Shown here: positions 715-63,510 of the stretch, one piece after another
Position numbering within the stretch: the first letter of the stretch is position 1
How the letters are laid out: each line of letters starts with the position of its first letter
Assembly (NCBI GenBank): GCA_030691625.1
Contig: JAUYDX010000088.1
Coordinates: 1,856-65,855 of the forward strand
Length of the DNA stretch: 64,000 nt
Source of the DNA: Candidatus Omnitrophota bacterium
GTDB taxonomy: Bacteria > Omnitrophota > Gorgyraeia > Gorgyraeales > Gorgyraeaceae
Direction of reading: 5' to 3'
The notes under the pieces: model-generated
The model's input: the letters and a program-made list of their open reading frames with translations, nothing else
What the model was told of the DNA's origin: nothing
Databases searched by the model: none
Translations under genes and position numbers: made by a program

Positions 715-1395
715 ATGCAAATGTTTGAAAATAAATCTTTTCAGCTGGCTGTCCTGGTTTCGATCTTTTTGCATTTTTCCGTGTTCCTGATCACGCCTTA
801 TACAGGCGCGTTGCCAAGAAAAGAACGCATCGATCCCATAAAGGTAGCTTATTTTAAGGTAAAGGCCGAGCCTAAAAAGGTTGTGGGAGAGAGGCCGCGG
901 CCCATTTCTCCTCTGGCGCCAGAGGCATTGCCTAAAGTAAAGAAGGATGAGATTTTAAACCCGCCGCAGGCGCAGGCAAAAAAAAAGGAAGAGCCGACCG
1001 TTGAAACCATAACCTCTGACTCCAGGGCCATAATAGGCGCCAAAGGCAAAAAGTTTGAAACAGTTGTCAATGACGAGAAGGATAGCGGCAAGAAAGCCGC
1101 TTATATAGGTTACTACAGATCAGTAAGGGAAAGGATAAGGTATTACGCTGATAGAAATTATATAAAGCAGGGCAGCGCGGCCCAGGGCGAGGTTTTTCTG
1201 TCCTTTGTGGTGACCTCCAGCGGAGAGCTTCTTCATATAATGGTTATTGACGCAAAGTCAGCGGATGACGCGATGTTGAGAAACATAGCTGTGGACAGCG
1301 TGAGAGACGCGAGCCCCTTCCCGGCATTTCCCCAGGGCATGAACCAGTACCAGGTCACCTTCAACGTAATAATCTCCTTCGAACTCAACAAATAA
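715..1395 (+). CDS. TonB family energy transducer (N-terminal TM, Pro/Lys-rich linker, TonB_C domain)
   Basis: N-terminal hydrophobic anchor, PKKVVGERPRPISPLAPEALPKVKK proline-rich spacer, C-terminal TonB-like fold (GEVFLSFVV...NVIISFEL). Confidence 0.6.
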   Translation: MQMFENKSFQLAVLVSIFLHFSVFLITPYTGALPRKERIDPIKVAYFKVKAEPKKVVGERPRPISPLAPEALPKVKKDEILNPPQAQAKKKEEPTVETITSDSRAIIGAKGKKFETVVNDEKDSGKKAAYIGYYRSVRERIRYYADRNYIKQGSAAQGEVFLSFVVTSSGELLHIMVIDAKSADDAMLRNIAVDSVRDASPFPAFPQGMNQYQVTFNVIISFELNK

Positions 1396-1434
1396 CTTTA
1401 CACTTCAAACAATGTTACAAGTGTCAAGTTGTTT
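1394..1434. repeat. family-1 40-bp palindrome (AACTTKACACTT..AAGTGTCAAGTT) copy A, upstream of groES promoter
   Basis: near-perfect inverted repeat. Confidence 0.9.
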
Positions 1435-1444
1435 AAAAAAATAC

Positions 1445-1473
1445 TTGACAAAGAGCCAGGGTTTGGTATTATA
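1445..1473 (+). promoter_or_regulatory. sigma-70-like promoter of groES (TTGACA, 17 nt spacer, ATTATA)
   Basis: TTGACA at 1445-1450, 17 nt spacer, ATTATA at 1468-1473, immediately upstream of CIRCE. Confidence 0.55.
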
Positions 1474-1482
1474 TTACAATAA

Positions 1483-1509
1483 ATAGCACTCCTCTTGGTA
1501 GAGTGCTGA
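1483..1509 (+). promoter_or_regulatory. CIRCE operator (HrcA binding site) aTAGCACTC-N9-GAGTGCTgA
   Basis: Matches consensus TTAGCACTC-N9-GAGTGCTAA; located between promoter and groES RBS. Confidence 0.85.
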
Positions 1510-1528
1510 CAAAATAAGGAGGTGTTAT

Positions 1529-1816
1529 ATGGCAATACAACCTTTAGGAGACAGAGTTCTCGTAAAAAGGCTTGAAGCAGAGGAAAAGACCAAAGGAGGC
1601 ATTGTTTTACCAGACACTGCCAAGGAAAAGCCCCAAAAAGGCGAGGTGGTAAGCTGCGGCAAAGGCAAGACGCTTGAGAGCGGCAAGGTAGAGCCTTTGG
1701 AGGTTAAAAAAGGCGATGTGGTGCTTTTTGGCAAATATTCAGGCGCGGAAATCACTTATAAAGAGGAAGAGTATCTGATATTAAAGGAAGAGGACATTTT
1801 AGCAATAATCAAATAA
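1529..1816 (+). CDS. groES: co-chaperonin GroES
   Basis: 95 aa, [14 protein letters not shown]...[14 protein letters not shown] classic Cpn10; SD AAGGAGG upstream. Confidence 0.95.
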
Positions 1817-1859
1817 ACAACTTTACACTTCAAACAATGTTACAAGTGTCAAGTTGTTT
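1815..1859. repeat. family-1 palindrome copy B, between groES stop and groEL RBS
   Basis: AAACAACTTTACACTTCAAACAATGTTACAAGTGTCAAGTTGTTT. Confidence 0.9.
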
Positions 1860-1881
1860 GGGAAAAAGGGAGGGAAATAAG

Positions 1882-3522
<1,641 letters not shown>

Positions 3523-3530: not shown

Positions 3531-3609
3531 CTTCTCGACTCTGCTCTCCTGATATGCTTTCGTGACCGCTCGAAGAATATTGCTCGAGCGAACGAAGTGA
3601 GTCGAGAAC
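3531..3609. mobile_element. family-4 MITE, shorter copy in inverted orientation
   Basis: TTCTCGACT...GTGACCGCTCGAAGAATATTGCTCGAGCG...AGTCGAGAA. Confidence 0.75.
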
Positions 3610-3623
3610 ATTAGGCCACACTT

Positions 3624-3665: not shown

Positions 3666-3712
3666 CAAACAACTTGACACTTCAAACAATGTTACAAGTG
3701 TCAAGTTGTTTG
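3666..3712. repeat. family-1 palindrome copy C
   Basis: inverted repeat, same consensus. Confidence 0.9.
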
Positions 3713-7743: not shown

Positions 7744-7761
7744 TCAACCTAACCGCCCCAG

Positions 7762-7804
7762 CAACTTTACACTTGTAACAATGTTTGTAGTGTCAAGTTG
7801 TTTG
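7762..7804. repeat. family-1 palindrome copy D (inner segment in opposite orientation)
   Basis: outer arms conserved, inner 19 nt reverse-complemented relative to copy A. Confidence 0.85.
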
Positions 7805-7894: not shown

Positions 7895-9055
7895 ATGGGC
7901 GAGTGGGTTGGAAGAGGCAGGAAGGCAAGGAGATGTTATGGGTTTGACGAGATCGCGCTTGTCCCCGGCAATGTTACGATAAATCCAAAAGAGACAGATA
8001 CGAGCTGGGAACTGGACGGAAAGAAATACAAGGTGCCTATTCTGGCAGCTGCCATGGACGGGGTAGTGGATGTGAAATTCGCGATAGAGATGTCCAGGCT
8101 CGGCGGGATAGCCGTCCTTAATTTAAACGGCGTGCAGACCAGGTATGAAGATCCTGATGAGGTGCTTGAGAAAATATCGCGCGCTAACCCGGAAGAAGCC
8201 ACAAAACTTGTGCAGTCGCTTTATCTGAAGCCTGTGCAGGAAAAACTTATCGCGAAAAGGATCAAGGAGATCAAATCCAAGAAAGGCGTGGCAGCTGTAA
8301 GTGCCATACCGCAGGACGCAGAAAAGTTCGGCAAGGTGGCTCAGGAGGCTGGCGCTGATATCTTTTTTATTCAATCAACTGTCATAAGCGTCAATCATGT
8401 CTCCAGCGAATATAAGATCGTGGACCTGGCGAAATTTATCAAATCAATGAAGATACCTGTGGTGCTGGGAAATTGCGTTACGTATTCCGTGGCGTTGGAA
8501 TTAATGGAGGCCGGGCCTGCGGCTATCCTGGTCGGGATAGGTCCTGGCGCGGCGTGCACCACTCGGGGCGTCTTAGGTATAGGCGTGCCTCAGGTAACAG
8601 CCACTTCGGATATAGCTGCGGCAAGGGATTTTTATTACAAGAAGACAGCGAAATACATACCTATTATAACAGACGGCGGCATGGATTCAGGCGGAGATAT
8701 ATGCAAGGCATTTGCCTGCGGCGCAGACGCGGTAATGGTGGGCTCTGCTTTCGCGAGGGCAAAGGAGGCGCCTGGCAAGGGATATCACTGGGGAATGGCA
8801 ACGCCACACGCCAACCTTCCCCGCGGCACCAGGATTCACGTTGGCACCACAGGGACACTGGAAGAGATCCTCCTGGGCCCTGCGAAGCTCGATGACGGCT
8901 CTCAGAATTTAGTAGGCGCTCTTATGACGTCAATGGGAAACCTCGGCGCTAGAAACATTAGAGAGATGCAGCTCACTGAAATTATCATAGCCCCATCCAT
9001 CAAGACCGAAGGCAAGATCATGCAAAGGGTCCAAAAGGTTGGCATGGGTAAATAA
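7895..9055 (+). CDS. IMP dehydrogenase/GMP reductase family protein (no CBS pair)
   Basis: TIM-barrel IMPDH motifs (GIGPGAACTTR catalytic Cys loop, GGMDSGGDICKAFACGADAVMVGS). Confidence 0.75.
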   Translation: MGEWVGRGRKARRCYGFDEIALVPGNVTINPKETDTSWELDGKKYKVPILAAAMDGVVDVKFAIEMSRLGGIAVLNLNGVQTRYEDPDEVLEKISRANPEEATKLVQSLYLKPVQEKLIAKRIKEIKSKKGVAAVSAIPQDAEKFGKVAQEAGADIFFIQSTVISVNHVSSEYKIVDLAKFIKSMKIPVVLGNCVTYSVALELMEAGPAAILVGIGPGAACTTRGVLGIGVPQVTATSDIAAARDFYYKKTAKYIPIITDGGMDSGGDICKAFACGADAVMVGSAFARAKEAPGKGYHWGMATPHANLPRGTRIHVGTTGTLEEILLGPAKLDDGSQNLVGALMTSMGNLGARNIREMQLTEIIIAPSIKTEGKIMQRVQKVGMGK

Positions 9056-9068
9056 AGTTAACCCGGAT

Positions 9069-9115
9069 TCAAACAACTTGACACTTGAAACAATGTCACA
9101 AGTGTCAAGTTGTTT
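9069..9115. repeat. family-1 palindrome copy E, between IMPDH-like stop and dnaE start
   Basis: inverted repeat. Confidence 0.9.
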
Positions 9116-9125
9116 GGTTGATTAT

Positions 9126-12100
9126 ATGCTTCATAGCGATTTCGTCCACCTGCACGTCCACACGCAATACAGCCTTCTTGACGGCGCCTGCATAATACCT
9201 AATCTCATTGACCTCGCGAGGCGCATGAAGATGCCTGCCTGCGCCATAACAGACCACGGCAACATGTTCGGCGCCATTGAATTCTACCAATCATGCATGA
9301 CGAATGGGATCAAGCCTATAATAGGGTCAGAGGTTTATATCGCCCCCAAAGGCAGGCTTGACAAGACCTTTTCCGCCGGAGAAGAAACAGCCAATCACCT
9401 GATACTGCTTGTCAAAGACGAGGCAGGATATAAAAATCTGATGAAGCTGGTCTCCATCGGTTATCTGGAAGGTTTTTATTATAAACCGAGGATCGATAAA
9501 GAGGTCCTGGCGCAGTATTCAAAAGGATTGATCGCGCTATCCAGCTGTTTAAAAGGCGAGATCCCCAGGTCTATAATGTCAGGGAAGGAAGAAAGGGCAA
9601 AACAGCTGGCAGATGAGTATTGCGCTATCATGGGCAAGGAAAATTTTTATTTTGAACTGCAGGATAACGGGATACCTGAGCAAAGGGAGGTCAGCAGGGA
9701 ACTTATAAGGCTTGGCAAAGAATTGGGCATAGGAGTAGTTGCCACTAACGACGTGCACTATCTTACCAGGGACAGCGCTAAGGCGCACGAGGCGCTTCTA
9801 TGCATACAGACGCAGACCACGCTGGATGACCCTAACCGCATGAAACTGCAGACAGACCAGTTTTATTTCAGGTCTGGCGAAGAAATGAAAGCGCTTTTTA
9901 AGGATACGCCGGACGCCATTTCCAACACAATAAAAATAGCGGAAAGGTGTAACCTGGAACTGGATTTCAAAAAGACATATCTTCCTCATTATGCCGCGCC
10001 TGAAGGCACCACGCGGGAAAAATTTATGAGAGAGCTCTGCGAAAATAATCTGGAGAAAAGATATCCCTTGTCTACCTGTCCAACTTCGCAAGTTGCCCCG
10101 ATGGGCAACTTGCGAAGTTGGACAGGTGGGGATATGAGACAAATAAAGGAAAGGCTGGATTATGAATTAAAGGTCATAAGCAAGGCAGGCTACACAAGTT
10201 ATTTCCTCATAGTGTGGGATTTTATAAGCCACGCGAAATCAAAAGGCATAGCTGTCGGGCCGGGAAGAGGTTCTGCGGCAGGGAGCATAGTGAGCTATCT
10301 CTTAGGCATAACAGACATAGACCCGCTCAGGTACAATCTCCTCTTTGAAAGATTTTTAAACTCTGAGCGCGTGAGCATGCCTGATATTGACATAGATTTC
10401 TGCTACGAAAGAAGGCCGGAGGTTATAGATTATGTCGTGCAGAAATACGGCAAGGACAATGTCGCGCAGATAATAACCTTCGGGACCATGGCAGCCAGGG
10501 CAGTAATAAGGGATGTGGGCAGGGTGATGAACCTTCCTTACGCTGATGTCGACAGGATAGCGAAGCTTGTGCCGATGGAACTGGACGTGACCCTGGAACT
10601 CGCGCTTGAAAAAGAACCGGAGCTCGCGAGATTATACAAAGAAGACCCAAGGGTGCGCGAACTTATAGATACCTCAAAAAAACTGGAAGGCCTTACGCGC
10701 CACGCGTCCACGCACGCGGCAGGGGTGGTCATAAGCGAGGATTCGCTCACCAACCACGTCCCAATATTTAAGACCAGCGATGGGCAAATTTCAACAGGCT
10801 ACGCCATGGGCTCTCTTGAAAAGATAGGGCTTTTTAAAAATGGATTTCCTGGGCTTGAGGACATTGACCGTTATTCAGGAGGCGATAAAGATAATCAACA
10901 GGGTCAATAATGTAGGGGCGGTCAATGACCGCCCCCTACGGGTTGAGGACATACCAATGGACGACCCTAAGACTTACAGGCTTTTGAATAACGCTGAATC
11001 AGAAGGCATATTCCAGCTGGAAAGTTCAGGGATGAGAGACCTTTTGAGGAAATTAAAGGCAGAGAAATTCGAGGACATAATAGCTCTTCTCGCGTTATAC
11101 AGGCCCGGCCCGATAGGAAGCGGCATGCTTGATGATTACATGAAGCGCAAGCACGGCAAGGTGGACGTGAGGTATGACCACCCGCTTCTTGAGGCGAGCC
11201 TGAAAGAGACATACGGCATCATTGTGTACCAGGAGCAGGTAATGACAATAGTCTCCTCGCTCGCTGGCTTTTCGCTGGCGCAGGCAGACCTTTTAAGAAG
11301 GGCTATCGGCAAAAAAACACCGGAGATAATGGAGCAGCAGAAAAAGGCCTTTATCGACGGCGCCGCGAAAAATAAAATAGACAGGCGTATTGCGGAAAAG
11401 ATATTTAACCTGATAGAGCATTTCGCCGGTTACGGCTTCAACAAAAGCCATTCAGCGGCGTACGCCATGATCTCTTACAGGACAGCGTACCTGAAGGCGA
11501 ACTTTCCCGTTGAGTTCATGACAGCCCTTCTCACCAGCGAAAAAGATAACACGGATAAGATAGTGGAATACATAGACGAGGCAGAGCGCATGGGTATAAA
11601 GATACTGCCTCCTGATATAAACGAGAGCTACGCGAATTTTACCATGATAAATAAAAATGAGATAAGATTTGGTTTGAGCGCTGTTAAAAATGTGGGCGAA
11701 GGCGCCATAGAATCCATAATCGAGGCCAGGAAAAAATACGGCCGTTTCTCGTCCCTGTACGAATTCTGCGAAAAGACAGATTCGAGGCTTGTGAATAAAA
11801 AGGTCATGGAGAGCCTTATAAAATGCGGGGCGTTTGACAGCGCGGGCCTTAAAAGATCCCAGCTGATGGCAATGCTGGCGGACACAATGAATGCCGCGGA
11901 TTCCGCGCACAAGGAATCCGCCACAGGCCAGATGACGCTTTTTACCAAGGACAGCCGCGAACCGCAGGCCCCGGATATAAAGGAGTGGCCTGAGAGCCAG
12001 CTTTTGAATTTTGAAAAAGATATGATAGGGTTTTATATAACAGGCCACCCTCTCGCCAAATACGAAAAGATGATCAAGGAATATTCCACAGCAGGCAGCG

Positions 12101-12633
12101 CCGGGCTGAGGAAGCTCGAGGACGGCCAGAAGGTCTGGTTCGGCGGCATAATAAACAAAATAAAAAACACGGTCACAAAGCGTTCCGGGGAAAAAATGGC
12201 TATCATGATGATGGAGGATATGGAAGGCAGCGTAGAAGCGCTTGTATTCCCAAACTCGTACAAAAACGTCTCCAGGAACATATTGCCTAATGCGGCAGTA
12301 TTTGTGAACGGCAGGCTCAGCCTTAAAGAGGAAAGGCCTAAGATAATCGTGGAGGAGATAATACCTATAACAGACGCCAGGAAAAAATTTACCCAGTCCA
12401 TTTCCATAAATCTCGCCAGCCAGGGCTCGGACGAGGAATTTTTCAACAGGCTCAGGAATGTCTTTTCAAGGTATCAGGGAGATACGCCTGTTTACATCAA
12501 TTTTTCCACTAAAGAAAACGGGTCTTTCCGCCAGGTCGTGGACAGGAAGCTTTTCGTGAGCCCCACCAATGAACTCGCCTCCGAGCTCGAGTCCCTGCTC
12601 GGCCGCGAACACATCCACTTCGAAAAATCCTAA
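9126..12633 (+). CDS. dnaE: DNA polymerase III alpha subunit DnaE, interrupted by a 1-nt frameshift in T5A5 run (10831-10840); contains two in-frame palindromic insertions
   Basis: PHP domain start MLHSDFVHLHVHTQYSLLDGA; two overlapping ORFs 9039-10910 and 10840-12633; removing one A restores ...GLFKMDFLGLRTL... Confidence 0.85.
10073..10127. repeat. family-2 palindrome, variant CCAACTTCGCAAGTTGCC, in frame inside dnaE
   Basis: 23-bp arms CCTGTCCAACTTCGCAAGTTGCC / GGCAACTTGCGAAGTTGGACAGG; adds ~18 aa STCPTSQVAPMGNLRSWTGG. Confidence 0.9.
10912..10939. repeat. GTAG-type REP-like hairpin GTAGGGGCGGTC-AAT-GACCGCCCCCTAC in frame inside dnaE
   Basis: 12/13-bp inverted repeat bounded by GTAG/CTAC; a related copy at 30949-30982. 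Confidence 0.8.
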
Positions 12634-12635: not shown

Positions 12636-12682
12636 CCAAACAACTTGACACTTCAAACAATGTCACAAGTGTCAAGTTGTTG
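12636..12682. repeat. family-1 palindrome copy F, after dnaE
   Basis: inverted repeat. Confidence 0.9.
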
Positions 12683-13052: not shown

Positions 13053-13062
13053 TTGTAGCGAT

Positions 13063-13099
13063 TGGTGCCAGGCACTATTTAAATAGTGCCTGGCACCAA
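13063..13099. repeat. family-3 GC-rich palindrome TGGTGCCAGGCAC..GTGCCTGGCACCA
   Basis: 13-bp arms around TATTTAAATA. Confidence 0.9.
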
Positions 13100-13109: not shown

Positions 13110-14393
13110 ATGATTAAAGCATTGCGCGGCACAAAAGATATTCTGCCAGGCGAGTCGGATTTATGGCAATTTATAGAATCTACTGGCAGGGATATATTTA
13201 ATATATATGGGTATAATGAGATAAGGACGCCGATAATAGAGGAGGCGTCTTTGTTTATAAGGGGCATAGGAGACCTGACTGACATAGTGCAGAAAGAGAT
13301 GTATGTTTTTTCTGACAGGGGCAATAGGCGAGTTGCGCTGAGGCCTGAGGCCACAGCGTCTATTGTCCGCGCGTATATAGAAAATTCAATGTCCCAGTCA
13401 GGCGGGGCCGCAAAGCTATTTTACACAGGCCCGATGTTCAGGAGCGAGAGGCCTCAGCAGGGCAGGCAGAGGCAGTTCTATCAGATAGGCGTGGAGGCAA
13501 TAGGCTCGGACAGCCCGTTTCTTGACGCTGAGGTTATTGCGCTGGCTGTGAGATTTCTTGACAGGCTTGGCGTTAAAAATTATCACGTGAAATTGAACAG
13601 CCTGGGCTGTCAGAAGGATAAAATGGCCGCAATAGCAAAACATAAAGAGAACTTTAAGCCTCATTTTGAAAAATTATGCGACACCTGCAAGGCCAGGTTT
13701 GACAAAAATGTCTTGAGGATATTTGACTGCAAGGGCGATACGTGCAGGGTCATTGCTGAAAATGTAAAGGTGGAGGCAGCGCTCTGCAATGACTGCGAGT
13801 CGCATTTTAAAAAGGTGAAACAGTGCCTGGACGAACTGGGCGTTAAATACACTGTGGATCATAAAATAGTAAGGGGCCTGGATTATTATACAAAGACTGT
13901 ATTTGAGATAACCCAGGATGACCTGGGCGCGAAAGACGCCATATGCGCCGGAGGCAGATATAATAATCTGGTAAAGGAACTGGGCGGGAAAGATACGCCT
14001 GCTACCGGGTTTGCTTTTGGCGTGGAGCGCCTGGCGCTTGCGTTAAAAGCTGTCAGCTGTCAGCATTCAGCTGTCAGCCCTAAAGTTTTTGTTGCGGTTG
14101 CGGGAGAAGGGCTTTACCCTGAAGCGTTTAAATTGCTGGATTCTTTGCGCGGCGCCGGGATCGCAAGCGAAATGGATTATGACGAGAGAAGCTTAAAGAG
14201 CCAGATGAGAAAGGCAGAGAAGCTCGGGGCAGGGTTTGTGGTTATTTTAGGGGAAGATGAGTTTAAAAAAGGCAAAGCTGTATTAAAGGATATGAGTAGC
14301 GGAGACCAAAAAGAAATAATGCTGAATGAAATTATTTCGGCGCTCCATACCATAAAAACTTCGCAGGTTGCCGAAGGCAACCTGCGAAGTTGA
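13110..14393 (+). CDS. hisS: histidyl-tRNA synthetase; C-terminal 11 aa and stop supplied by a family-2 palindrome
   Basis: class II aaRS motifs, MIKALRGTKDILP start; ends TSQVAEGNLRS* inside REP. Confidence 0.9.
   Translation: MIKALRGTKDILPGESDLWQFIESTGRDIFNIYGYNEIRTPIIEEASLFIRGIGDLTDIVQKEMYVFSDRGNRRVALRPEATASIVRAYIENSMSQSGGAAKLFYTGPMFRSERPQQGRQRQFYQIGVEAIGSDSPFLDAEVIALAVRFLDRLGVKNYHVKLNSLGCQKDKMAAIAKHKENFKPHFEKLCDTCKARFDKNVLRIFDCKGDTCRVIAENVKVEAALCNDCESHFKKVKQCLDELGVKYTVDHKIVRGLDYYTKTVFEITQDDLGAKDAICAGGRYNNLVKELGGKDTPATGFAFGVERLALALKAVSCQHSAVSPKVFVAVAGEGLYPEAFKLLDSLRGAGIASEMDYDERSLKSQMRKAEKLGAGFVVILGEDEFKKGKAVLKDMSSGDQKEIMLNEIISALHTIKTSQVAEGNLRS
14048..14078 (+). repeat. short tandem repeat (GCTGTCAGC x3) inside hisS coding sequence
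   Basis: gctgtcagctgtcagcattcagctgtcagc encoding AVSCQHSAVS. Confidence 0.7.
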
Positions 14394-15776: not shown

Positions 15777-15824
15777 CCAAACAACTTTACATTGAGACAA
15801 TGACGGAATGTAAAGTTGTTTGGG
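15777..15824. repeat. family-1 palindrome copy G (TTTACATTG/CAATGTAAA compensatory variant)
   Basis: stem substitutions on both arms preserve pairing. Confidence 0.85.
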
Positions 15825-16482: not shown

Positions 16483-16508
16483 CAAAGCAGGGAACAGCCG
16501 CGATCGTA

Positions 16509-16571
16509 CCGCCTCAACCTCGCAGGTTACCTCGCAGGTTACCTCGCAGGTAACCTGCGAGGTTGAGGCGG
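16509..16571. repeat. family-2 palindrome with internal triplication (CCTCGCAGGTTA x3)
   Basis: CCGCCTCAACCTCGCAGGTTACCTCGCAGGTTACCTCGCAGGTAACCTGCGAGGTTGAGGCGG. Confidence 0.9.
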
Positions 16572-16605
16572 TTTGTTGTAAAGTTGTTGAGGGTGTAAAC
16601 CTTGG

Positions 16606-19726: not shown

Positions 19727-20172
19727 AGATAGATATACAGAATCTGCAAAGTATAATCAAGCTTGATAAGGCTAAGATAACAGAGCGCGCAGGCGCGGTG
19801 TTAAGCGCCATGTCAGAACCTGACGCGGAATTGAGCCTGGTTTTCGTGAACGACATGTATATCAGGAATCTGAACTGGAAGTACAGGAGGATAGATTCCG
19901 CCACAGACGTGCTGGCGTTTCCCATGCGGGACTCGAGAGGGCTTTCAGGCTCCATACTGGGAGACGTGGTGATATCCGTGGAGACTGCGAGGCGCGAGGC
20001 AAAAAAACGAAAAAAGGATTTTCAGGAAGAGCTGGATTTATATCTGGCGCACGGCATATTGCATCTTTTAGGCTACGACGACGAAAAGCCAAGAGCAAGA
20101 AAGAAGATGAGAGAGAAGGAGAAAGAGCTCCTCCGTCTATTCCAAAGTTCTCGACTTAGTATTCATATATAG
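19723..20172 (+). CDS. ybeY: endoribonuclease YbeY; last ~10 codons and stop lie inside a family-4 MITE
   Basis: HGILHLLGYDD metal-binding motif; overlaps upstream stop (ATGA). Confidence 0.88.
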   Translation: MKIDIQNLQSIIKLDKAKITERAGAVLSAMSEPDAELSLVFVNDMYIRNLNWKYRRIDSATDVLAFPMRDSRGLSGSILGDVVISVETARREAKKRKKDFQEELDLYLAHGILHLLGYDDEKPRARKKMREKEKELLRLFQSSRLSIHI

Positions 20173-20245
20173 CCACAATGTCCGCTCGAACACTAATATT
20201 CTTCGAGCGGTCACGAAAGCTGGATGTGAGAGCAAAGTCGAGAAA
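20146..20245. mobile_element. family-4 MITE overlapping ybeY 3' end
   Basis: GTTCTCGACT...GTCCGCTCGAACACTAATATTCTTCGAGCGGTCACGAAAGC...AGTCGAGAAA. Confidence 0.8.
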
Positions 20246-20254
20246 ATATATGAG

Positions 20255-21641: not shown

Positions 21642-22221
21642 CCTCATCCTTACTTTTTTTACAAAAGATTTCGGGAAGATAGACGGCATCATAAAAGGCG
21701 CCAGGGGCGCCAGGCCCAGGGGCGACGCTAACCCGATATTTTTCAGCCTGGACCAGATAGTTTTTTACGAAAAAAAATTTGGAGGCATCTCCATAATCTC
21801 GCAATGCGAGACAGAGGAGGTGTTCCTCAATATATTGAAGGAGTGGGCCAGGGCGTCGTCAGCTTATTACATGCTGGAACTGGCAGACGTATTCACCGAG
21901 CCTGAAGGCAGGTCAGAAGAGGTTTTCGAGGCGCTTTACAGCGGCTTTAAATCCCTAGACAGCGGGAAGGATGCCTCAGGTATAACCAGGCTTTTTGAGA
22001 TAAAATTACTCATGGCGCTTGGTTTCTGGCCTGGCGCGGAATATTTCAAGCTGACCAAAGGCGCGATGTCCAGCGTCATGCATCTTGAAAAAGAACCCTG
22101 GAAAACAGCCTCTAATATAAAACTGGCAAAAGAGGTAAATGGCGAGATCAGGGCTGTTACGGCTAAACTTATCGAAGAAAATCTTGACAGGCCGCTAAAA
22201 ACCGTCAGATTTTTAACTTAA
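21583..22221 (+). CDS. recO: DNA repair protein RecO
   Basis: MAIQKTEAILLKKKDFRETSLIL N-terminal OB fold typical of RecO. Confidence 0.75.
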   Translation: MAIQKTEAILLKKKDFRETSLILTFFTKDFGKIDGIIKGARGARPRGDANPIFFSLDQIVFYEKKFGGISIISQCETEEVFLNILKEWARASSAYYMLELADVFTEPEGRSEEVFEALYSGFKSLDSGKDASGITRLFEIKLLMALGFWPGAEYFKLTKGAMSSVMHLEKEPWKTASNIKLAKEVNGEIRAVTAKLIEENLDRPLKTVRFLT

Positions 22222-22262
22222 ACCTCGTAGGTTGCCGTAGGCAACCTACGAGGTTGTGGTGG
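22222..22262. repeat. family-2 palindrome between recO stop and glyQ start
   Basis: ACCTCGTAGGTTGCC-GTAG-GCAACCTACGAGGTT + GTGGTGG. Confidence 0.9.
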
Positions 22263-23113: not shown

Positions 23114-23156
23114 ACAACTTGACACTTGTGACATTGTTATAAGTGTCAAGTTGTTT
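23112..23156. repeat. family-1 palindrome copy H, between glyQ stop and glyS
   Basis: inverted repeat beginning at the glyQ TAA. Confidence 0.9.
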
Positions 23157-25222: not shown

Positions 25223-25265
25223 TTTGGTGCCAGGCACCGTGCCAGGCACGGTGCCTGGCACCAAA
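25223..25265. repeat. family-3 palindrome with duplicated arm
   Basis: TTTGGTGCCAGGCACCGTGCCAGGCACGGTGCCTGGCACCAAA. Confidence 0.9.
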
Positions 25266-29405: not shown

Positions 29406-29424
29406 GTCGTAGAGCTTATGCAGG

Positions 29425-29526: not shown

Positions 29527-29548
29527 AATTACGGAACTGCGCGGAAGA

Positions 29549-39635: not shown

Positions 39636-39684
39636 CCCAAACAACTTTACACTTGTGACAATGTTTGTAGTGTCAAGTTGTTTT
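39636..39684. repeat. family-1 palindrome copy J
   Basis: inverted repeat. Confidence 0.9.
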
Positions 39685-40531: not shown

Positions 40532-40578
40532 CAACAACTTGACACTTAAGACAATGTCACAAGTGTCAAGTTGTTTGG
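40532..40578. repeat. family-1 palindrome copy K
   Basis: inverted repeat. Confidence 0.9.
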
Positions 40579-42802: not shown

Positions 42803-43708
42803 ATGGAGAACCCTGATAATAAAAATATGATAGGCCTGGCGCTTGGGTCAGGCGCCGCTTTCGGGCTCGCGCACATAGGCGTATTGCGCGTTCTTGAGAG
42901 GGAAAAGATTCCAGTAGGGGTTGTTTCAGGCGCGAGCATAGGCGCCCTTATCGCGGCAATGTGGTGCATTGGCCTGAGTTCAAATGACATAGAAGCGATT
43001 TCCGCGAAACTGAAAAGAAAGCTCAATATCATGAGGCTCCTGGATTTTACATTTCCGATATCCGGGATACTGGCAGGCAGGCGGCTCAAGAGATTTTTAA
43101 GGGCTATCCTGGGGGACAGGACATTCGAAGACCTGAAGATCCCCGTCAAAATAATAGTTTACGACCTGGCAAGCAGGGAGACAATAGTAGCGGACAAAGG
43201 CAGGATCCTGGACGCTGTATATAAAAGCATAGCTGTTCCGGGTATTTTTCAGCCAATAATGGAAGACGGAAGGATGTACGTGGACGGAGGAATCCTGGAT
43301 CCCGTGCCTGTGGATATACTTTTCAGGAGCGGCGCGAAAAAGGTCATAGCGGTCAATGTCCTGCCCGGGCCGAAGAATATACGCGAAAGAAATGTGGCCC
43401 TAAAAGAGATTGCCAAAGAAGAGGAAAACATGCTTAGGCACGGCTCATTGGGAGAAAAGATGTGCGCCTATATCTCCAGGTTTTTCAGAAAGGTTTTTAC
43501 GCCCAATATATTCGACGTCATAATGACCAGTATGCAGGCAATGGAATACTCTATAGCCGAGGTAAATTGCTGCAGGGCTGACGTGAACCTGCACCCTGTT
43601 TTAAGCGACGCCAGCTCGATAGATTTTCATCTTGTGAAGAGTTTTGTGAAAATAGGCGAGGAAGAGGCCCTGAGGCACATAGACAAGATAAGAGCTCTAA
43701 CAACTTGA
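42803..43708 (+). CDS. patatin-like phospholipase; last 3 codons and stop lie inside a family-1 palindrome
   Basis: GxGxxG oxyanion hole (GSGAAFG), GASIG nucleophile elbow, DGG catalytic Asp motif. Confidence 0.85.
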   Translation: MENPDNKNMIGLALGSGAAFGLAHIGVLRVLEREKIPVGVVSGASIGALIAAMWCIGLSSNDIEAISAKLKRKLNIMRLLDFTFPISGILAGRRLKRFLRAILGDRTFEDLKIPVKIIVYDLASRETIVADKGRILDAVYKSIAVPGIFQPIMEDGRMYVDGGILDPVPVDILFRSGAKKVIAVNVLPGPKNIRERNVALKEIAKEEENMLRHGSLGEKMCAYISRFFRKVFTPNIFDVIMTSMQAMEYSIAEVNCCRADVNLHPVLSDASSIDFHLVKSFVKIGEEEALRHIDKIRALTT

Positions 43709-43743
43709 CACTTGTGACATTGTCACAAGTGTCAAGTTGTTGG
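43698..43743. repeat. family-1 palindrome copy L, perfect palindrome, contains patatin stop codon
   Basis: TAACAACTTGACACTTGTGACATTGTCACAAGTGTCAAGTTGTTGG. Confidence 0.9.
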
Positions 43744-48061: not shown

Positions 48062-48107
48062 CAAACTACTTTACATTGAGACAATGACGCAATGTAAAGT
48101 AGTTTAG
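48062..48107. repeat. family-1 palindrome copy M (TTTACATTG variant)
   Basis: same variant as copies G and Q. Confidence 0.85.
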
Positions 48108-48796: not shown

Positions 48797-48853
48797 AGAA
48801 GGCAGTATATACGAAAAATATCATTTTTGCAACCTTTTACTACCTTAACCTGC

Positions 48854-48886
48854 CCCAACCTACGAGGTAACCTGCGAGGTTGAAGA
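48854..48886. repeat. family-2 palindrome (partial left arm), upstream side of REPtron
   Basis: CCCCAACCTACGAGGTAACCTGCGAGGTTGAAG. Confidence 0.8.
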
Positions 48887-48946
48887 TAAAAAATTAAAAT
48901 TTTTGAAAGAAACCCCTCATCTAAATGTGTCTTATATGGTAAATAA

Positions 48947-48988
48947 ACCACCTCAACCTGCGAGGTAACCTGCGAGGTTGAAGTGGTT
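48947..48988. repeat. family-2 palindrome immediately 5' of RAYT gene
   Basis: AACCACCTCAACCTGCGAGGTAACCTGCGAGGTTGAAGTGGTT. Confidence 0.9.
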
Positions 48989-49008
48989 AAATCAAAGAGG
49001 AGGTGGAT

Positions 49009-49638
49009 ATGTTTGTTACAGGCGAAATTTATCATGTTTATAGTAAGAGTATAGCTGATTTTAAGATATTCAATAATGATTTTGAATACCAGAGAATTAA
49101 TAAAGCAATGCAATATTATCAAGTTTCTAAACGGCCTGGAAGTTTTTCTAACTTTTTGGAATACGGGAAACAGCTTTCAGCGGGTAATACCAATAATAAA
49201 CTGGTGCAAATTATTTCTTATTGTCCGATGCCGACTCATTTGCATTTTACCTTAAAGCAATTAATAGAAAAAGGGATATCAACATTTATGAGCAATGTCC
49301 TCAATAGCTATACCCGTTATTTTAATATCAAGCATAACCGTAAAGGTCCGCTATGGGAAGGGCGGTTCAAGAAAGTATTGGTGAAAAGCGATGAACAGCT
49401 AATTCATCTGACTCGCTATATCCATTTAAATCCTGTTACAGCAGGTTTGGTTAATAATCCGATAGATTGGCCATGGTCTTCTTATCATGAGTTTATTAAT
49501 AAAGATTTAACAGAAGACAGCATTTGTGAATACAAAAATATATTAGACATAAAACCTGATAGTTATAAAGCATTCACAGAAGATAGAGCTTCTTATCAAA
49601 GAGAATTGGCAAAAATAAAGCATATACTGATCGATTAG
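49009..49638 (+). CDS. REP-associated tyrosine transposase (RAYT; IS200/IS605 TnpA-like HUH enzyme)
   Basis: HUH motif HLHFTL, catalytic Tyr region RYIHLNPV, ~200 aa; flanked on both sides by inverted family-2 palindromes. Confidence 0.8.
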   Translation: MFVTGEIYHVYSKSIADFKIFNNDFEYQRINKAMQYYQVSKRPGSFSNFLEYGKQLSAGNTNNKLVQIISYCPMPTHLHFTLKQLIEKGISTFMSNVLNSYTRYFNIKHNRKGPLWEGRFKKVLVKSDEQLIHLTRYIHLNPVTAGLVNNPIDWPWSSYHEFINKDLTEDSICEYKNILDIKPDSYKAFTEDRASYQRELAKIKHILID

Positions 49639-49680
49639 ACCACCTTAACCTACGAGGTAACCTGCGAGGTTGAGATGGTT
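49639..49680. repeat. family-2 palindrome immediately 3' of RAYT gene
   Basis: GACCACCTTAACCTACGAGGTAACCTGCGAGGTTGAGATGGTT. Confidence 0.9.
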
Positions 49681-51411
49681 ATCAGGGTGTGGTATAATAG
49701 ACGCATGGCAGTTAAAAATATATTTTTAATTATCATTATAATTATCGCGGCAGCCGCGCCTTATATAAACTCCATGCACAATCCTTTCATCTGGGACGAG
49801 GAGGAGATTATAGTAAAAAATCCCGTGATAAAAGATTGGAGCTACCTGCCGCATGTTTTTAAGACAAACATTTTCGGGACAGCAATAACCCCGTCCGGTT
49901 ACTACAGGCCCATGTATACGCTGTCATTCATGGCAGATTACAATATCTGGGGCCTTAATACCTTCGGATACCACCTCTTTAATATCCTATTCCATGTTTT
50001 AAACGCTATTTTGCTGTATTTACTTCTCATGAAGCTTGGGCTGGACAGGAAAATCGCATGCTTTAGCAGTGTATTATTCGCTGTGTATCCGATAAACTGC
50101 GAAGCTGTTACGCTTATAGCCGCAAGAGTGGAGCTCATAGCGGGTTTTCTGCTTTTATCGTGCATGATATGTTTTATCAATGGCGTAAAAGGCCGGGGGC
50201 TTAATTTTCTATTGTCCATTATTTTCTTTGCGCTGGCCATGTTGACAAAAGAAAGCGTTATGGTATTCCCGTTTATACTACTGGCTTACACCCTGATATT
50301 CGTAGAGAAAAAGCCCGGGTCAAAGGCTATTTTACCTTTAATGGTTTTGATATTAATGGCCGCGTTTTACGGTATTGCCAGGTTCCTGCTTCTGGGCCAC
50401 TCGCCGGTCACAACCTTATCCCTTATAAACAGCGCCAGTTTTATTGAAAAGGTTTTTACGTTGCCGGGGATATTATTTACATATGTGTCGCTTATATTGT
50501 TTCCTGTCAGGCTGATAAGCGAATACGATTTTGTGCTGCGAAGTTTCTGGGATCCGCGCGTCTGGCTGGCAGCGTTTTTATTAATAGCCATGTTTTCAGC
50601 CGCGTATCTGCGGCTTAAGCCAAAAAAATATCCGCTATTTTTCATATCCTGGTTTTTAATAAGCCTGGCGCCTTACTTTAATATAATAATCCCCCTGCAT
50701 GCCACTCTTATGGAGCATTGGGCGTATTTTTCCACAATGGGTTTCGCTGCCCTGTCAGGGATAGCTGTTTTTAATATGGCTGAATCCGCGTCTTCCAGGT
50801 GGCTGAAAGGGCTTCTGATCCTGATGGCCGCGTCCCTTATCGGATTTTATATCGCGAAGATAACAGAGCGCAACATGGAATGGAGCGATCCTTTCAGGTT
50901 ATACCAGGCAGATGTTAAAAAAGAGCCGAATAGTTTTTTACTGCATTGCAATCTGGGCGTGGAGTATTTCAGGAGAGGGATGACGGAAGAGGCTGAAAAA
51001 GAATTCCTGGAATGCAATAATGTAAGCCCCGGCGGTAAATATGACACAGCCTGCAATAACCTGGGAGTGATATACGCGAGAAAAGGCAGGACAGAAGAGG
51101 CAATAGCTTTATACAAGGAGAGCATAGACATCAATAACTATCCCCTGGCTTATGAAAATTTAGGCGGGCTTTATAATGCCATGGGTAAACATAGAGACGC
51201 TGTATTAATTCTTGAAAAAGGCGCTGAGCTGTACCCATTAAACATTAATATCCTGTACCAGTTAGGGATCGCTTATTACATGAACAAGGAATTTGGCCCG
51301 GCTAAACAGATGTTTCTGAGGGTGGAGGGGATCCAGAAAAATTATTCAGACACAGCCAAATTCCTCAATCTCCTAAACAACTTGACACTTCAAACATTGT
51401 CACAAGTGTAA
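49675..51411 (+). CDS. polytopic membrane protein with C-terminal TPR repeats, paralog of 46174-47778; C-terminus and stop inside a family-1 palindrome
   Basis: same architecture and alignable N-terminus (..WDEEEII / FQFDDVKRIVG..) as the paralog. Confidence 0.6.
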   Translation: MVIRVWYNRRMAVKNIFLIIIIIIAAAAPYINSMHNPFIWDEEEIIVKNPVIKDWSYLPHVFKTNIFGTAITPSGYYRPMYTLSFMADYNIWGLNTFGYHLFNILFHVLNAILLYLLLMKLGLDRKIACFSSVLFAVYPINCEAVTLIAARVELIAGFLLLSCMICFINGVKGRGLNFLLSIIFFALAMLTKESVMVFPFILLAYTLIFVEKKPGSKAILPLMVLILMAAFYGIARFLLLGHSPVTTLSLINSASFIEKVFTLPGILFTYVSLILFPVRLISEYDFVLRSFWDPRVWLAAFLLIAMFSAAYLRLKPKKYPLFFISWFLISLAPYFNIIIPLHATLMEHWAYFSTMGFAALSGIAVFNMAESASSRWLKGLLILMAASLIGFYIAKITERNMEWSDPFRLYQADVKKEPNSFLLHCNLGVEYFRRGMTEEAEKEFLECNNVSPGGKYDTACNNLGVIYARKGRTEEAIALYKESIDINNYPLAYENLGGLYNAMGKHRDAVLILEKGAELYPLNINILYQLGIAYYMNKEFGPAKQMFLRVEGIQKNYSDTAKFLNLLNNLTLQTLSQV

Positions 51412-51420
51412 AGTTGTTAG
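51373..51420. repeat. family-1 palindrome copy N, supplies C-terminus and stop of TPR-membrane gene
   Basis: inverted repeat; host ORF ends ..NLTLQTLSQV* inside it. Confidence 0.9.
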
Positions 51421-52911: not shown

Positions 52912-53090
52912 AAGAAAAAAGCCGATAAAGGCTTTTAGCTTCGGCTTTTCATCGCTCGGCAACCCGGCCGCCATATTATTACTGACTGCCTCACTGACCA
53001 TTTGCGTTAGCTCAGGTCACGGCTTGTCAGAATAACTTAGGCCCGTAGGCTTTGCGCCCCCTGATTTCTCAGGGTTTGCCCTTATCGGCT
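52912..53090 (-). ncRNA. c-di-GMP-I (GEMM) riboswitch-like RNA with own promoter and terminator, convergent with/antisense-oriented to the GGDEF gene
   Basis: minus-strand RNA AGCCGAUAAGGGCAAACC-CUGAGAAAUCAGG-GGGCGCAAAGCC-UACGGGCCUAAG...GGCGGCCGGGUUGCCGAGCGAUG matches the GEMM consensus; ends in a hairpin plus U6. Confidence 0.55.
52917..52950. terminator. bidirectional intrinsic terminator (ends GGDEF gene on + and GEMM RNA on -)
   Basis: AAGCCGA..TCGGCTT hairpin flanked by A-run on one side and T-run on the other. Confidence 0.6.
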
Positions 53091-53137: not shown

Positions 53138-53183
53138 CAACAACTTGACACTTGTAACAATGTCACAAGTGTCAAGTTGTTGG
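53138..53183. repeat. family-1 palindrome copy O
   Basis: inverted repeat. Confidence 0.9.
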
Positions 53184-55654: not shown

Positions 55655-55738
55655 AAAACAACTTGACGCGGAGACATTGTCTCAATGTCAAGAAACAACT
55701 TTACATTGAGACAATGACGCAATGTAAAGTTGTTTGGG
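55655..55738. repeat. tandem pair of family-1 palindromes (degenerate copy P + variant copy Q) in divergent intergenic region
   Basis: AACAACTTGACGCGGAGACATTGTCTCAATGTCAAG followed by AAACAACTTTACATTGAGACAATGACGCAATGTAAAGTTGTTT. Confidence 0.8.
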
Positions 55739-57409: not shown

Positions 57410-57457
57410 CCCCAACAACTTTACACTTGTGACATTGTTTGAAGTGTCAAGTTGTTT
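57410..57457. repeat. family-1 palindrome copy R
   Basis: inverted repeat. Confidence 0.9.
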
Positions 57458-61293: not shown

Positions 61294-61392
61294 GGTTCTC
61301 GACTTTGCTGCCGTAATAAGCTTTCGTGACCGCTCGAACAATATTGTTCGAGCGGACGTTGTGGCTATGCATGTAAGCTTAGTCGAGAACCC
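61293..61392. mobile_element. family-4 MITE between polA and coaE, perfect 12-bp TIRs GGGTTCTCGACT/AGTCGAGAACCC
   Basis: TIRs and internal CGCTCGAACAATATTGTTCGAGCG palindrome. Confidence 0.85.
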
Positions 61393-61408
61393 TTGCGACG
61401 AGAAAGAC

Positions 61409-61948
61409 ATGGTAATAGGCGTTACAGGAAGTTTTGGGAGCGGGAAGACCACAGTGGCCAGGATGTTTGCGAAGCTCGGGGCATATTATATAGACGCTGA
61501 CAGGGTGTATCATTCCCTTTTGAGACATGACAGCGCTATGCGTAAAAAAATTATAAAGCATTTCGGCGAGACCGTAACTATGAGCGCGGGAAAGATAGAC
61601 ACAAAAAAGCTTGCGAAGATCGTGTTCAGCGACCGCGCGAAACTTGATTTATTGAACAGGTTGACCCATCCTGCGATAAAAAACAAGATAAAGGACATGA
61701 TCCGCGCTGAAAAAACAAGGGATATTGTCCTTGAGGCGCCGCTTCTTATTGAATCTCGCTTTTACAGGGAGGCGGATATTGTCATAGTCATTGAAGGGAG
61801 AGAAAAAGAAGACGCGCTCATGAGAACAAGGATGCAGATGCCTTTAAATAAAAAACTGGCATTTGCTGATTTTATCATAGATAATAGCGGAACCAGAGAA
61901 AAGACATTCAGCCAGGTCAGGGAGATCTGGAAAAAAAGAGGAGAATAA
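61409..61948 (+). CDS. coaE: dephospho-CoA kinase
   Basis: [17 protein letters not shown]-loop; ORF-track upstream start lies inside family-4 MITE. Confidence 0.85.
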
Positions 61949-61949
61949 C

Positions 61950-63215
61950 ATGGAAACAAAGGAAAAACTGGATATTGAAAAATTGAAATCAATGAAGATA
62001 TCTGAATTGAACAAGCTCGCCCACGGATTAAACGTGAACAGCGTGAGCGGCCTTAAGAAGCAGGACCTGATATTCAAGGTGCTTCAGGCGCAGACAGAAA
62101 AAGACGGGCTTATATTCGGGGAAGGGGTCCTGGAGATACTGCCGGACGGTTTTGGATTTTTACGCTCTCCTAATTATAATTATCTGCCGTGCCCGGATGA
62201 TATATACATATCCCCGTCCCAGATAAGGAAATTTGAACTGAGGACAGGGGATACTGTGAGCGGCCAGATACGGCCCCCTAAAGAGGGCGAAAGATATTTC
62301 GCACTGCTAAAGGTAGAGGCTGTAAATTTTGAAAGCCCGGAGGCTGCGAAAGACAAGATTCTCTTTGACAACCTCACTCCTATATATCCCAATGTCAGGT
62401 ATAAGCTGGAGACCAAGGCCCAGGACATATCTATGCGCATAATGGATCTGTTGACGCCTGTAGGAAAAGGCCAGAGGGGCATGATAGTCGCGCCTCCGTA
62501 TAGCGGCAAAACCATAATAATGCAGAAAATAGCCAACAGCATCGCGACCAATTTTCCTGATACTGTTATAATGGTGCTCTTGATAGACGAGCGGCCTGAA
62601 GAGGTTACTGACATGCAGAGGTCTGTAAAGGGCGAGGTCGTCAGTTCCACATTTGACGAGCCTGCTGAAAGGCATGTGCAGGTGGCTGAAATGGTGCTTG
62701 AAAAGGCAAAGAGGCTCGTGGAGCATAATAAAGACGTTGTGATTCTCCTGGACAGCATTACCAGGCTTGCAAGGGCGTATAATTCTGTTGTGCCGCATTC
62801 CGGCAAGATACTCTCGGGCGGCGTGGATTCAAACGCGCTTCATAAACCGAAAAGATTTTTCGGAGCTGCCAGGAATATAGAGGAAGGCGGCAGCCTCACT
62901 GTCATAGCCACAGCGCTTGTGGATACAGGTTCCAGGATGGATGAGGTAATTTTTGAAGAATTCAAAGGCACAGGCAACATGGAACTCCAGCTCGACAGGA
63001 CACTTTTCCAGAGAAGGGTTTATCCCGCGATAGACATAAAGAGGTCCAACACAAGGAAAGAAGAGCTGCTTGTAGATCCAAAAGAGCTACAGAGGATATG
63101 GATACTTAGAAAGGTTTTGAACGAGCTCAATAGCGTGGAGGCAATGGAACTTTTAATTGAAAAGATATCAAAGACCAAGACAAACGAGGATTTTCTGAGC
63201 AACATGAACCAGTAG
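61950..63215 (+). CDS. rho: transcription termination factor Rho
   Basis: N-terminal RNA-binding domain, Walker [10 protein letters not shown] and R loops. Confidence 0.95.
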
Positions 63216-63223
63216 ATTAGACC

Positions 63224-63270
63224 ATGTCCAACTTCGCAAGTTGCCCACGGCAACTTGCGAAGTTGGACAT
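63224..63270. repeat. family-2 palindrome (CCAACTTCGCAAGTTGCC variant) between rho and rpmE
   Basis: ATGTCCAACTTCGCAAGTTGCC-CAC-GGCAACTTGCGAAGTTGGACAT. Confidence 0.9.
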
Positions 63271-63282
63271 AAGACACCATAA

Positions 63283-63499
63283 GGGGGAGAAAATGAAAGA
63301 CAAAATTCATCCGGAATACAAAGACGCCACAATCACATGCGCGTGCGGTGAGGTGGTACACACCCGTTCCACAAAACAGAACATACGCGTGGAAATCTGT
63401 TCCAAGTGCCACCCGTTTTTTACAGGCAAGCAGAAATTCGTGGACTCCGCGGGCAGGGTGGAAAAGTTTCTTAAAAAATACAAAAAGAGTTCTTCCTAA
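63283..63499 (+). CDS. rpmE: 50S ribosomal protein L31
   Basis: MKDKIHPEY..CxC...CxKCHPF zinc-ribbon L31; ORF-track start lies inside a palindrome. Confidence 0.9.
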
Positions 63500-63510
63500 C
63501 AACTTTATAC
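63498..63510. repeat. truncated family-1 left arm (copy S) fused to a family-2 palindrome
   Basis: TAACAACTTTATAC only, followed by family-2 element. Confidence 0.5.

Follow-up and report, generated by a model that had tools for sequence, protein, structure and literature searches.

In Escherichia coli, repetitive extragenic palindromes (REPs) and bacterial interspersed mosaic elements are paired with TnpA-REP (yafM), a REP-associated tyrosine transposase (RAYT), in an arrangement called the 'REPtron' (Quentin 2018, PMC6006769; Messing 2012, PMC3479197). The concept covers extragenic hairpin repeats, a Y1 transposase gene flanked by such repeats, a repeat family that is specific to its RAYT, and subfamilies of repeats (PMC6006769; PMC5581495). 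Hairpins that lack a GTAG tag, flank a Y1 gene and are dispersed in the genome are known for TnpAY1 subclass 2.6 and class 3, and subclass 2.1 has been reported to carry terminal inverted repeats only, with no REP-like association (PMC6006769). Here we analysed a 64,000-nt stretch of a Candidatus Omnitrophota genome (contig JAUYDX010000088.1; 'the window' is this whole stretch), in which a short palindrome that we call Family-1 recurs between genes, and compared it with relatives and metagenomic contigs, whose loci carry L numbers. Family-1 is very probably a REP family of this genome whose copies a cognate RAYT propagates and homogenises.

Allowing up to three mismatches, we counted 33 occurrences of the 15-nt arm AACAACTTGACACTT in the window where 1.4 were expected (reached in 0 of 100 shuffles), which bears out a preliminary description that had reported a repeated palindrome here. 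Nearly all arm matches formed inverted pairs, spaced 13 nt or 11 nt; 32 of the 33 were paired and the remaining one was the left arm of a degenerate copy at 55656. Where 'about 19 copies' had been counted, we found 17 full ones, 14 of type A (43 nt) and three of type B (41 nt), the extras being two solitary half-arms and a degenerate copy in tandem (Table 1). A covariance model built from 62 Family-1 copies, taken from the window and several Omnitrophota metagenome-assembled genomes (MAGs), recovered exactly these 17 at 51–69 bits, and its next-best match, at 24.7 bits, was a palindrome of another family. All but one of the full copies (16/17) are solitary, the sole tandem pair lying at 55656–55735, and near-identical copies stand at unrelated loci of the window (1391, 1816 and 3668; 23113 and 29627; 15780, 48064 and 55694).

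Type A is laid out as AACAACTT-K-ACACTT, 13 variable bases and AAGTGT-M-AAGTTGTT, and type B as AACAACTTTACATTG AGACAATGACG CAATGTAAAGTTGTT. Three blocks were invariant or nearly so in the 62-copy alignment: the foot AACAACTT/AAGTTGTT, KACA/TGTM and the centre ACA-W-TGT, whose middle base in the window is A in 12 copies and T in five. AACAAC/GTTGTT forms the foot, with a decayed CCA before it, and the flanks weakly prolong the palindrome (CCA...TGG), to ~49 nt when the decayed CCA/TGG feet are included. G+C content is 25–43%, and the tail is TTGTTTGG. The inner 19 nt, previously said to flip between constant outer arms, is instead a variable, mostly self-complementary stem around the invariant ACA-W-TGT. 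TTGACA, previously placed in both arms generally, was seen in both arms in just 7 of the 17 copies; six have a left arm with TTTACA, mismatched to the TGTCAA across from it.

Folded as single-stranded DNA, the copies formed hairpins of ~20 bp (−11.8 to −22.3 kcal/mol, z-scores −4.5 to −8.7), in keeping with the REP-like, hairpin-forming repeat proposed earlier. Across the 62 copies, 86.5% of stem cells were paired and 14 pairs changed on both sides, values reached in 0 of 500 shuffles, and slid-partner controls gave 31–42% pairing. Columns 13/39 (GC 26, UA 24), 17/35 (CG 31, UA 15, AU 5) and 22/30 (AU 29, GC 22) are examples. Constraint on base-pairing of the stem, claimed in the preliminary description, is therefore supported, although the three paired-substitution copies cited there are one subfamily by descent and count as one event; the independent compensatory changes appear in comparison with copies from other genomes.

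These changes bear on whether the palindrome is an operator of a dimeric global regulator that binds double-stranded DNA through TTGACA-containing half-sites. The palindrome has symmetric, invariant outer half-sites of 12 nt and a conserved centre, and in related genomes an XRE-type helix-turn-helix (HTH) gene adjoins the RAYT gene described below, all as such an operator might have it. In a double-stranded operator, however, there would be no reason for the spacer to change in a compensatory way. Operators are usually far shorter than 43 bp, a half-site mismatch occurs in 7 of 17 copies and the window has at least three further palindrome families at sites of this kind. The sites also lie mostly 3' of genes or within operons, and in our promoter and terminator scans, which covered window positions 1–16000 and seven of the 17 copies, they never overlapped a promoter. 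We consider an operator highly improbable; the unidentified dimeric regulator invoked earlier is most likely a RAYT, whose gene is flanked by the same palindrome in related genomes.

Open reading frames (ORFs), nearly all on the + strand, fill ~92% of the window, yet all 17 full copies lie at gene junctions in the ~8% that is non-coding, 13 of them within 16 nt of an upstream stop codon or tRNA end. The element itself provides several of the stop codons (TGA within AACAACTTGA at 43699; TAA at 1391, 1816, 23113 and 51376). Another 45 copies, from other MAG loci, were all at junctions too, and 46 of 56 classifiable copies sat between co-directional genes, abutting the upstream stop codon. Pfam confirmed the junctions named in the preliminary description (groES/groEL, glyQ/glyS, tRNA-Arg/PHP, IMPDH/dnaE, aspS/LysM, M48, LOG, hybrid kinase, response regulator (RR)-GGDEF and BNR/TPR), with the reservation that rpmE/prfA holds a half-arm only, beside a palindrome of a different family. 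Such density and junction placement, thought unusual, are normal for REP families. Copies probably accumulate at junctions because so densely coding a genome leaves only short spacers, beside stop codons, tRNA ends, ribosome-binding sites (RBSs) or promoters, in which insertion would be tolerated.

Junction placement also invites a role in RNA, with dispersal secondary: the hairpin could have been selected as an RNase III/E site, a 3'-end stabiliser, a partial terminator or a translation uncoupler. Transcription is probable for copies between co-directional genes, such as those in groES/groEL and glyQ/glyS, a stem of ~20 bp has the length that RNase III requires, and two junctions are occupied in species whose genes are 78–80% identical. 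When copies were oriented by their flanking genes, on the other hand, sense-strand G·U cells (12) did not exceed A·C cells (22), and orientation relative to transcription was random (centre A 26, T 29), which lends no specific support to the mRNA stabiliser or RNase processing site suggested earlier and gives no sign of selection on the sense transcript. A generic RNA hairpin needs no long invariant blocks of primary sequence, one of the relatives has an empty groES/groEL spacer, and the element's sequence follows the RAYT and not the host genes.

Intrinsic terminators were rejected: the elements are A+T-rich, have no U-tract and, at positions 1–16000, were called terminator-like in 0 of 7 cases, whereas the groEL terminator at 3624–3653 was called. 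A promoter within the element was rejected as well, its TTGACA never being paired with a −10 box in the seven copies of that region; promoter-like sites instead lay 12–22 nt downstream of four copies. A canonical terminator precedes one copy and a tRNA immediately precedes another; the copy past the terminator and the four upstream of the next promoter are probably poorly transcribed. A selected role in RNA thus seems to us unlikely; effects of the hairpin on polycistronic mRNAs (3'-end protection, translational uncoupling) are plausible as side effects.

The exact Family-1 pattern was found in at least four Omnitrophota MAG species (UBA10183, GWA2_41_15, CG1_02_40_15 and OS_PC_MetaG.mb.108) in a scan of one genome per species, the search in related genomes that the preliminary description had called for; the window's own genome was not among the matches listed. 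Viral contigs scanned for the pattern gave 0 matches, on which a viral origin was rejected. One further exact match (L032, JBBTVS010000045.1) was in a 'Patescibacteria group' MAG from the Hainich H43 sample that also yielded an Omnitrophica MAG, and this contig may be mis-binned. In another match (L034), the loop is replaced by AAAGCC-TG-GCTTT.

Orthologous sites differed in occupancy. Among the first 35 loci only L021 and L023 were syntenic with the window, these nearest loci having genes 78–80% identical, and four groESL loci (L125–L128) were added for comparison. The groES/groEL spacer carries Family-1 in the window, a decayed related palindrome in the close relative L125 (GroES 95% identical), other palindrome families in L126 and L128, and nothing in L127, where it is 32 nt long. 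The copy after groEL is missing in L125, where the terminator and a neighbouring ~100-nt repeat are kept. At glyQ/glyS and tRNA-Arg/PHP the junction is occupied both in the window and in L023 or L021, each genome having its own subtype (43 versus 41 nt) and one copy being offset by 10 nt.

No target-site duplication was seen: the 62 copies had no identical direct flanks at 3–5 or 8 nt, one match at 2 nt against 3.9 expected and one chance match at 6 nt. Y1 transposition of the IS200/IS605 kind is expected to leave none, and empty or differently occupied sites together with the lack of duplications fit Y1-type mobility. We also considered a miniature inverted-repeat transposable element (MITE) of a DDE transposase with terminal inverted repeats, an inverted pair of DNA-uptake sequences and an integron attC-like site. 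Family-1 shares with these its shortness, inverted ends, many copies and location at gene junctions, and its AAC...GTT ends are loosely like attC cores. However, typical MITEs are much longer than 41–43 nt and would leave duplications; lone arms, as expected of uptake sequences, are rare (~2–3 half-sites versus 17 pairs); and the genes beside the palindrome are no cassettes but core housekeeping genes whose synteny is conserved. Neither the annotated genes of the window nor those called beside RAYT loci included an integrase or a DDE transposase, and the enzyme associated with the palindrome is a Y1 transposase. Any of the three is scarcely credible as an explanation.

That enzyme was found in related genomes. 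A gene of Omnitrophica GWA2_41_15 (L015, 2192–3076 on the − strand, 294 aa) matched Pfam Y1_Tnp above cutoff (E 3.8e-8) and, over the full profile, NCBIfam REP_Tyr_transpos, the REP-associated tyrosine transposase (E 1.5e-14, 54 bits), with weak HTH matches at its C-terminus. Two Family-1 copies lie upstream of it and one lies 2 nt past its stop codon, and L045 has the same flanking layout. A database search returned 686 homologues of ~295 aa; those with a named source were nearly all labelled Omnitrophota or Omnitrophica transposase, and most homologues were each seen on one contig. Invariant in an alignment of 31 sequences were H76, H78, Y135, H137, N139 and W154-S155-S156, corresponding to the HuH motif (NH[IL]H), the Tyr motif Y-x-H-x-N-P and WSS. 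When solved structures were searched with a profile, E. coli TnpA-REP (4er8) ranked first, at E 0.0011 and aligned through the HuH and Tyr motifs; a single-sequence search of the PDB missed it. The order hom-thrC-RAYT-XRE was kept in six loci, which fits a resident, vertically inherited RAYT gene rather than a hopping insertion sequence. In the protein match tables, many RAYT contigs of ~950–1000 bp and many groES contigs of ~580–660 bp consist of the gene and its flanking repeats, indicating that the palindromes routinely break metagenome assemblies.

The palindrome tracks the RAYT lineage. Upstream and downstream flanks were compared against shuffled controls in the 51 metagenomic RAYT loci with enough flank, and 41 of them had a lineage-specific palindrome of 30–45 nt common to both flanks, well above the controls. 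Of six loci inspected, four had upstream copies with A at the centre and a downstream copy with T, so that these were mutually inverted. The arms diverged stepwise while RAYT identity to L015 fell from 94% to 40%. At 94% (L045) the type A arms are identical; at 68% (L042) the palindrome is the 41-nt Family-1 type dispersed in UBA10183-like genomes; and at 67% (L044) it is type B/C, the window's type B together with a variant like that at 55656. The arms read ATAAACTTGACACTC... at 69% (L037), AAGTTGACACTCT... at 66% (L040) and AATAAGTTGACAGAATCGG... (AATAAGTTGACAGAA...) at 48% (L036), and several loci at 40–45% have TAGACA, GAGACA, GTTACA or TTACCCA types. As TTGACA was never paired with a −10 box in the seven copies scanned and gives way to TAGACA, GTTACA or GAGACA in diverged RAYT lineages, we read it as part of a recognition core and not a −35 box. 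A motif, TTGAAAGAAA-N11-13-ATGTGTC[TA]TATAT, lies between the upstream palindromes of RAYT genes even where the palindromes differ (in the window; L015, ~3190–3150 on the − strand; L037, ~4780–4812; and upstream of the RAYT in L040 and L042), and may be a shared promoter or regulatory site of the RAYT.

Within the window itself we found a RAYT-like gene at 49009–49638, which does not belong to Family-1. Its product matched NF047646 (E 5.6e-17) and Pfam Y1_Tnp (27.5 bits, cutoff 23), and it is flanked by a third palindrome family (AACCTGCGAGGTT/CAACTTCGCAAGTTG types) that is also dispersed in the window. A complete unit of RAYT and palindrome inside the window indicates that the source genome runs REP-RAYT systems.

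Taken with these results, Family-1 would be a non-autonomous element that acts as a single-stranded hairpin, and its partner a Y1/HUH tyrosine transposase of ~295 aa with a C-terminal HTH, which the window's own genome probably encodes outside these 64 kb. The invariant blocks (the AACAACTT foot, KACA and the central ACAWTGT) would be determinants of protein recognition and cleavage, while the co-varying stem would need only to pair.

Like E. coli REPs, Family-1 consists of short imperfect palindromes in high copy number, strictly extragenic and with subfamilies within a genome, and the transposase gene, with its HuH and Tyr core and 4er8 as top structure match, is flanked by its own REP. It differs in having no GT[AG]G foot tag, in being almost fully symmetric and in its host phylum, Omnitrophota and not Proteobacteria; the Omnitrophota RAYT is ~130 aa longer than TnpA-REP, has a C-terminal HTH and is only weakly similar to it (the profile match above). 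With the REPIN/RAYT systems of Pseudomonas (Bertels & Rainey 2011, PMC3116915; Bertels 2017, PMC5581495) it shares a transposase in conserved synteny that may be single-copy, flanking short sequences that are abundant genome-wide and within-genome populations with sub-lineages, but the Family-1 unit is a single palindrome rather than a doublet of two REPs with a spacer.

The 'double-foot' REPs of TnpAY1 subclass 2.4 likewise carry the same motif at both feet (PMC6006769), as in AACAAC...GTTGTT, although foot sequence and RAYT lineage differ from those of subclasses 2.4 and 2.6 and class 3. In its YIHLNP, NHxH HuH motif and C-terminal HTH, the RAYT resembles subclass 2.1 (Bertels Group 1, TIRYT) as described (PMC6006769), a likeness drawn from the published description; unlike that subclass, the Omnitrophota clade is clearly REP-associated. 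As with TnpA-IS200 of IS200/IS605 and its subterminal hairpins, a Y1/HUH enzyme for single-stranded DNA hairpins goes together with a lack of target-site duplication, but the repeats spread without the RAYT gene, which stays at one conserved chromosomal locus; the Tyr motif is Y---NP in place of Y---Q, and there is no tnpB. Family-1 is thus a new REP family rather than a novel system of regulation, atypical in lacking the canonical GTAG tag, with an identifiable RAYT clade in Omnitrophota. A full-text search of the literature turned up no relevant paper that connects RAYTs with Omnitrophota.

Several points weigh against a RAYT-propagated REP family. The element has neither the GT[AG]G nor the CGTC tag of canonical REPs and forms single palindromes, not REPIN doublets; the apparent link between RAYT and palindrome is one of association in the sequences; and no Family-1 RAYT was found within the 64-kb window. 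NF047646, an equivalog model with a curated cutoff of 80 bits, aligned to clade members over the full profile at 54.1, 63.5, 72.1 and 62.0 bits, which makes the clade (54–72 bits) distant relatives of the curated family. The occupation of the same junctions at 78–80% gene identity could, in addition, reflect a function selected in the host. The HTH-bearing RAYT might have been domesticated for maintenance, with the hairpins serving the host, and this would be the first REP association of a subclass-2.1-like RAYT; we hold this extended view to be doubtful. A RAYT-propagated REP family remains the explanation that we favour.

Table 1. Family-1 copies and remnants, the RAYT-like gene of the window, and further repeats and features (window coordinates).
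Feature	Position	Strand	Context
Type A	1391..1433		Overlaps TonB_C stop codon; upstream of groES promoter and CIRCE; 61 bits
Type A	1816..1858		Fills groES/groEL spacer; begins on last base of groES stop codon; RBS follows
Type A	3668..3710		15 nt past canonical groEL terminator, before MoxR promoter; missing at L125 site
Type A	7760..7802		Between TgpA-like gene and promoter of IMPDH-like gene
Type A	9072..9114		IMPDH-like/dnaE junction
Type A	12639..12681		5 nt past dnaE stop codon, before HU promoter
Type B	15780..15820		aspS/LysM junction
Type A	23113..23155		glyQ/glyS junction; first base is last base of glyQ stop codon; L023 junction occupied too
Type A	29627..29669		Directly after CCA end of tRNA-Arg(CCT), before PHP; L021 junction occupied 10 nt further on
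Type A	39640..39682		Upstream of M48 peptidase gene
Type A	40533..40575		M48/LOG junction
Type A, perfect palindrome	43699..43741		Gives patatin gene its last codons and TGA stop; upstream of hybrid histidine kinase
Type B	48064..48104		Between convergent genes: 96-aa ORF (+) and GT2 (−)
Type A	51376..51418		PMT/TPR ORF runs through most of the copy and ends at right-arm TAA; upstream of RR-GGDEF gene
Type A	53139..53181		Upstream of DUF3187 gene
Type B	55694..55734		Upstream of BNR-repeat gene; tandem with degenerate copy 55656..55692
Type A	57414..57456		BNR/TPR junction, upstream of polA
Degenerate Family-1-like copy AACAACTTGACGCGGAGACATTGTCTCAATGTCAAG	55656..55692		Resembles palindrome downstream of L044 RAYT
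Solitary right half-arm remnant TGTTGTAAAGTTGTT	16574..16588		Abuts other-family palindrome 16508..16572
Solitary left half-arm remnant	63498..63512		rpmE/prfA junction, beside other-family palindrome 63521..63557; not a full copy
RAYT-like gene, not Family-1	49009..49638	+	209 aa; HuH PTHLHF, Tyr RYIHLNPV
Two upstream copies of that RAYT's palindrome (..CAACCTGCGAGGTAACCTGCGAGGTTG..)	48846..48990		TTGAAAGAAA..ATGTGTCTTATAT motif in between
Motif TTGAAAGAAA-N11-13	48903..48940		Between the two upstream copies
Downstream copy of same palindrome	49636..49680		Begins at RAYT stop codon
Third palindrome family, other sites	14357..14391, 16508..16572, 22221..22255, 63224..63270, 63521..63557		
Second palindrome family, on GGTGCCAGGCACC	13062..13099, 25223..25265, 28023..28061, 30854..30896, 34022..34062		Five junctions
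Perfect 25+25-nt palindrome, other family	10074..10127		Within dnaE frame, between PHP and pol3-alpha
~100-nt repeat	20140..20250, 29415..29535, 3535..3615		Also in L021 and L125
GTAG-tagged palindrome	30949..30982		Single window copy
groES promoter and CIRCE-like repeat	1445..1510		Kept in L125–L128
c-di-GMP-I riboswitch aptamer	34122..34209	+	Rfam, 81.8 bits
c-di-GMP-I riboswitch aptamer	52954..53089	−	Rfam, 59.9 bits; spacer after RR-GGDEF-MshEN gene
dnaE, two overlapping ORFs	9039..10910, 10840..12633		Both with DNA pol III alpha domains

Together, the palindrome families occupy ~30 places in the 64 kb. The lost halves of the remnants at 16574 and 63498 were sought beyond the neighbouring other-family palindromes as a test of nested insertion, and none was found. 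At the site orthologous to the second-family copy at 28023, L021 carries a different palindrome. The perfect palindrome ACCTGTCCAACTTCGCAAGTTGCCC cgat GGGCAACTTGCGAAGTTGGACAGGT within the dnaE frame is 54 nt long and thus adds 18 codons without shifting the frame; there are earlier reports of REPs inserted in frame within genes (PMC6006769). The dnaE gene itself appears as two overlapping ORFs, and either a split gene, a frameshift or an error in sequencing could account for this. The ~100-nt repeat, which is MITE-like, has TTCTCGAC...GTCGAGAA ends and an inner hairpin CCGCTCGAA-AATATT-TTCGAGCGG, and its post-groEL copy is the one kept in L125. A palindrome of canonical REP type, TAATGTAGGGCGGGTTT/AAACCCGCCCTACATTA, is GTAG-tagged.

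The groES promoter (TTGACA-16-TATTAT) is followed by a conserved inverted repeat, TAGCACTC-N9-GAGTGCTGA, resembling CIRCE (controlling inverted repeat of chaperone expression), so that the heat-shock operator is separate from the Family-1 copy upstream. On the reverse strand of L021, the region orthologous to 29400–29630 contains a partial duplicate of the tRNA-Arg 5' half upstream of the complete tRNA. A search of the window with Rfam at gathering thresholds returned two cyclic di-GMP (c-di-GMP) riboswitches and tRNA only, with no match at Family-1 elements.

The findings extend REP-RAYT systems to the uncultured phylum Candidatus Omnitrophota, in which the RAYT clade is large (686 homologues in our search), and they account for a conspicuous trait of these genomes: Family-1 and the palindrome family of the window's own RAYT can be annotated as REPs, where they might have been taken for terminators, promoters or operators. 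REPs without a GTAG tag are joined here to a RAYT that has a C-terminal HTH, a combination recalling a subclass that was described as lacking REPs. Natural RAYT/palindrome pairs of graded divergence, of which the clade has dozens, should be useful for working out how Y1 enzymes read their hairpin substrates. In this Omnitrophota lineage, REPs of several families punctuate about half of the gene junctions, and at glyQ/glyS and tRNA-Arg/PHP, which stay occupied across species, copies may be re-homogenised to the genome's own subtype. If the hairpins did serve the host, the candidate functions would be intercistronic mRNA processing or stability, translational uncoupling, and replication or chromosome organisation.

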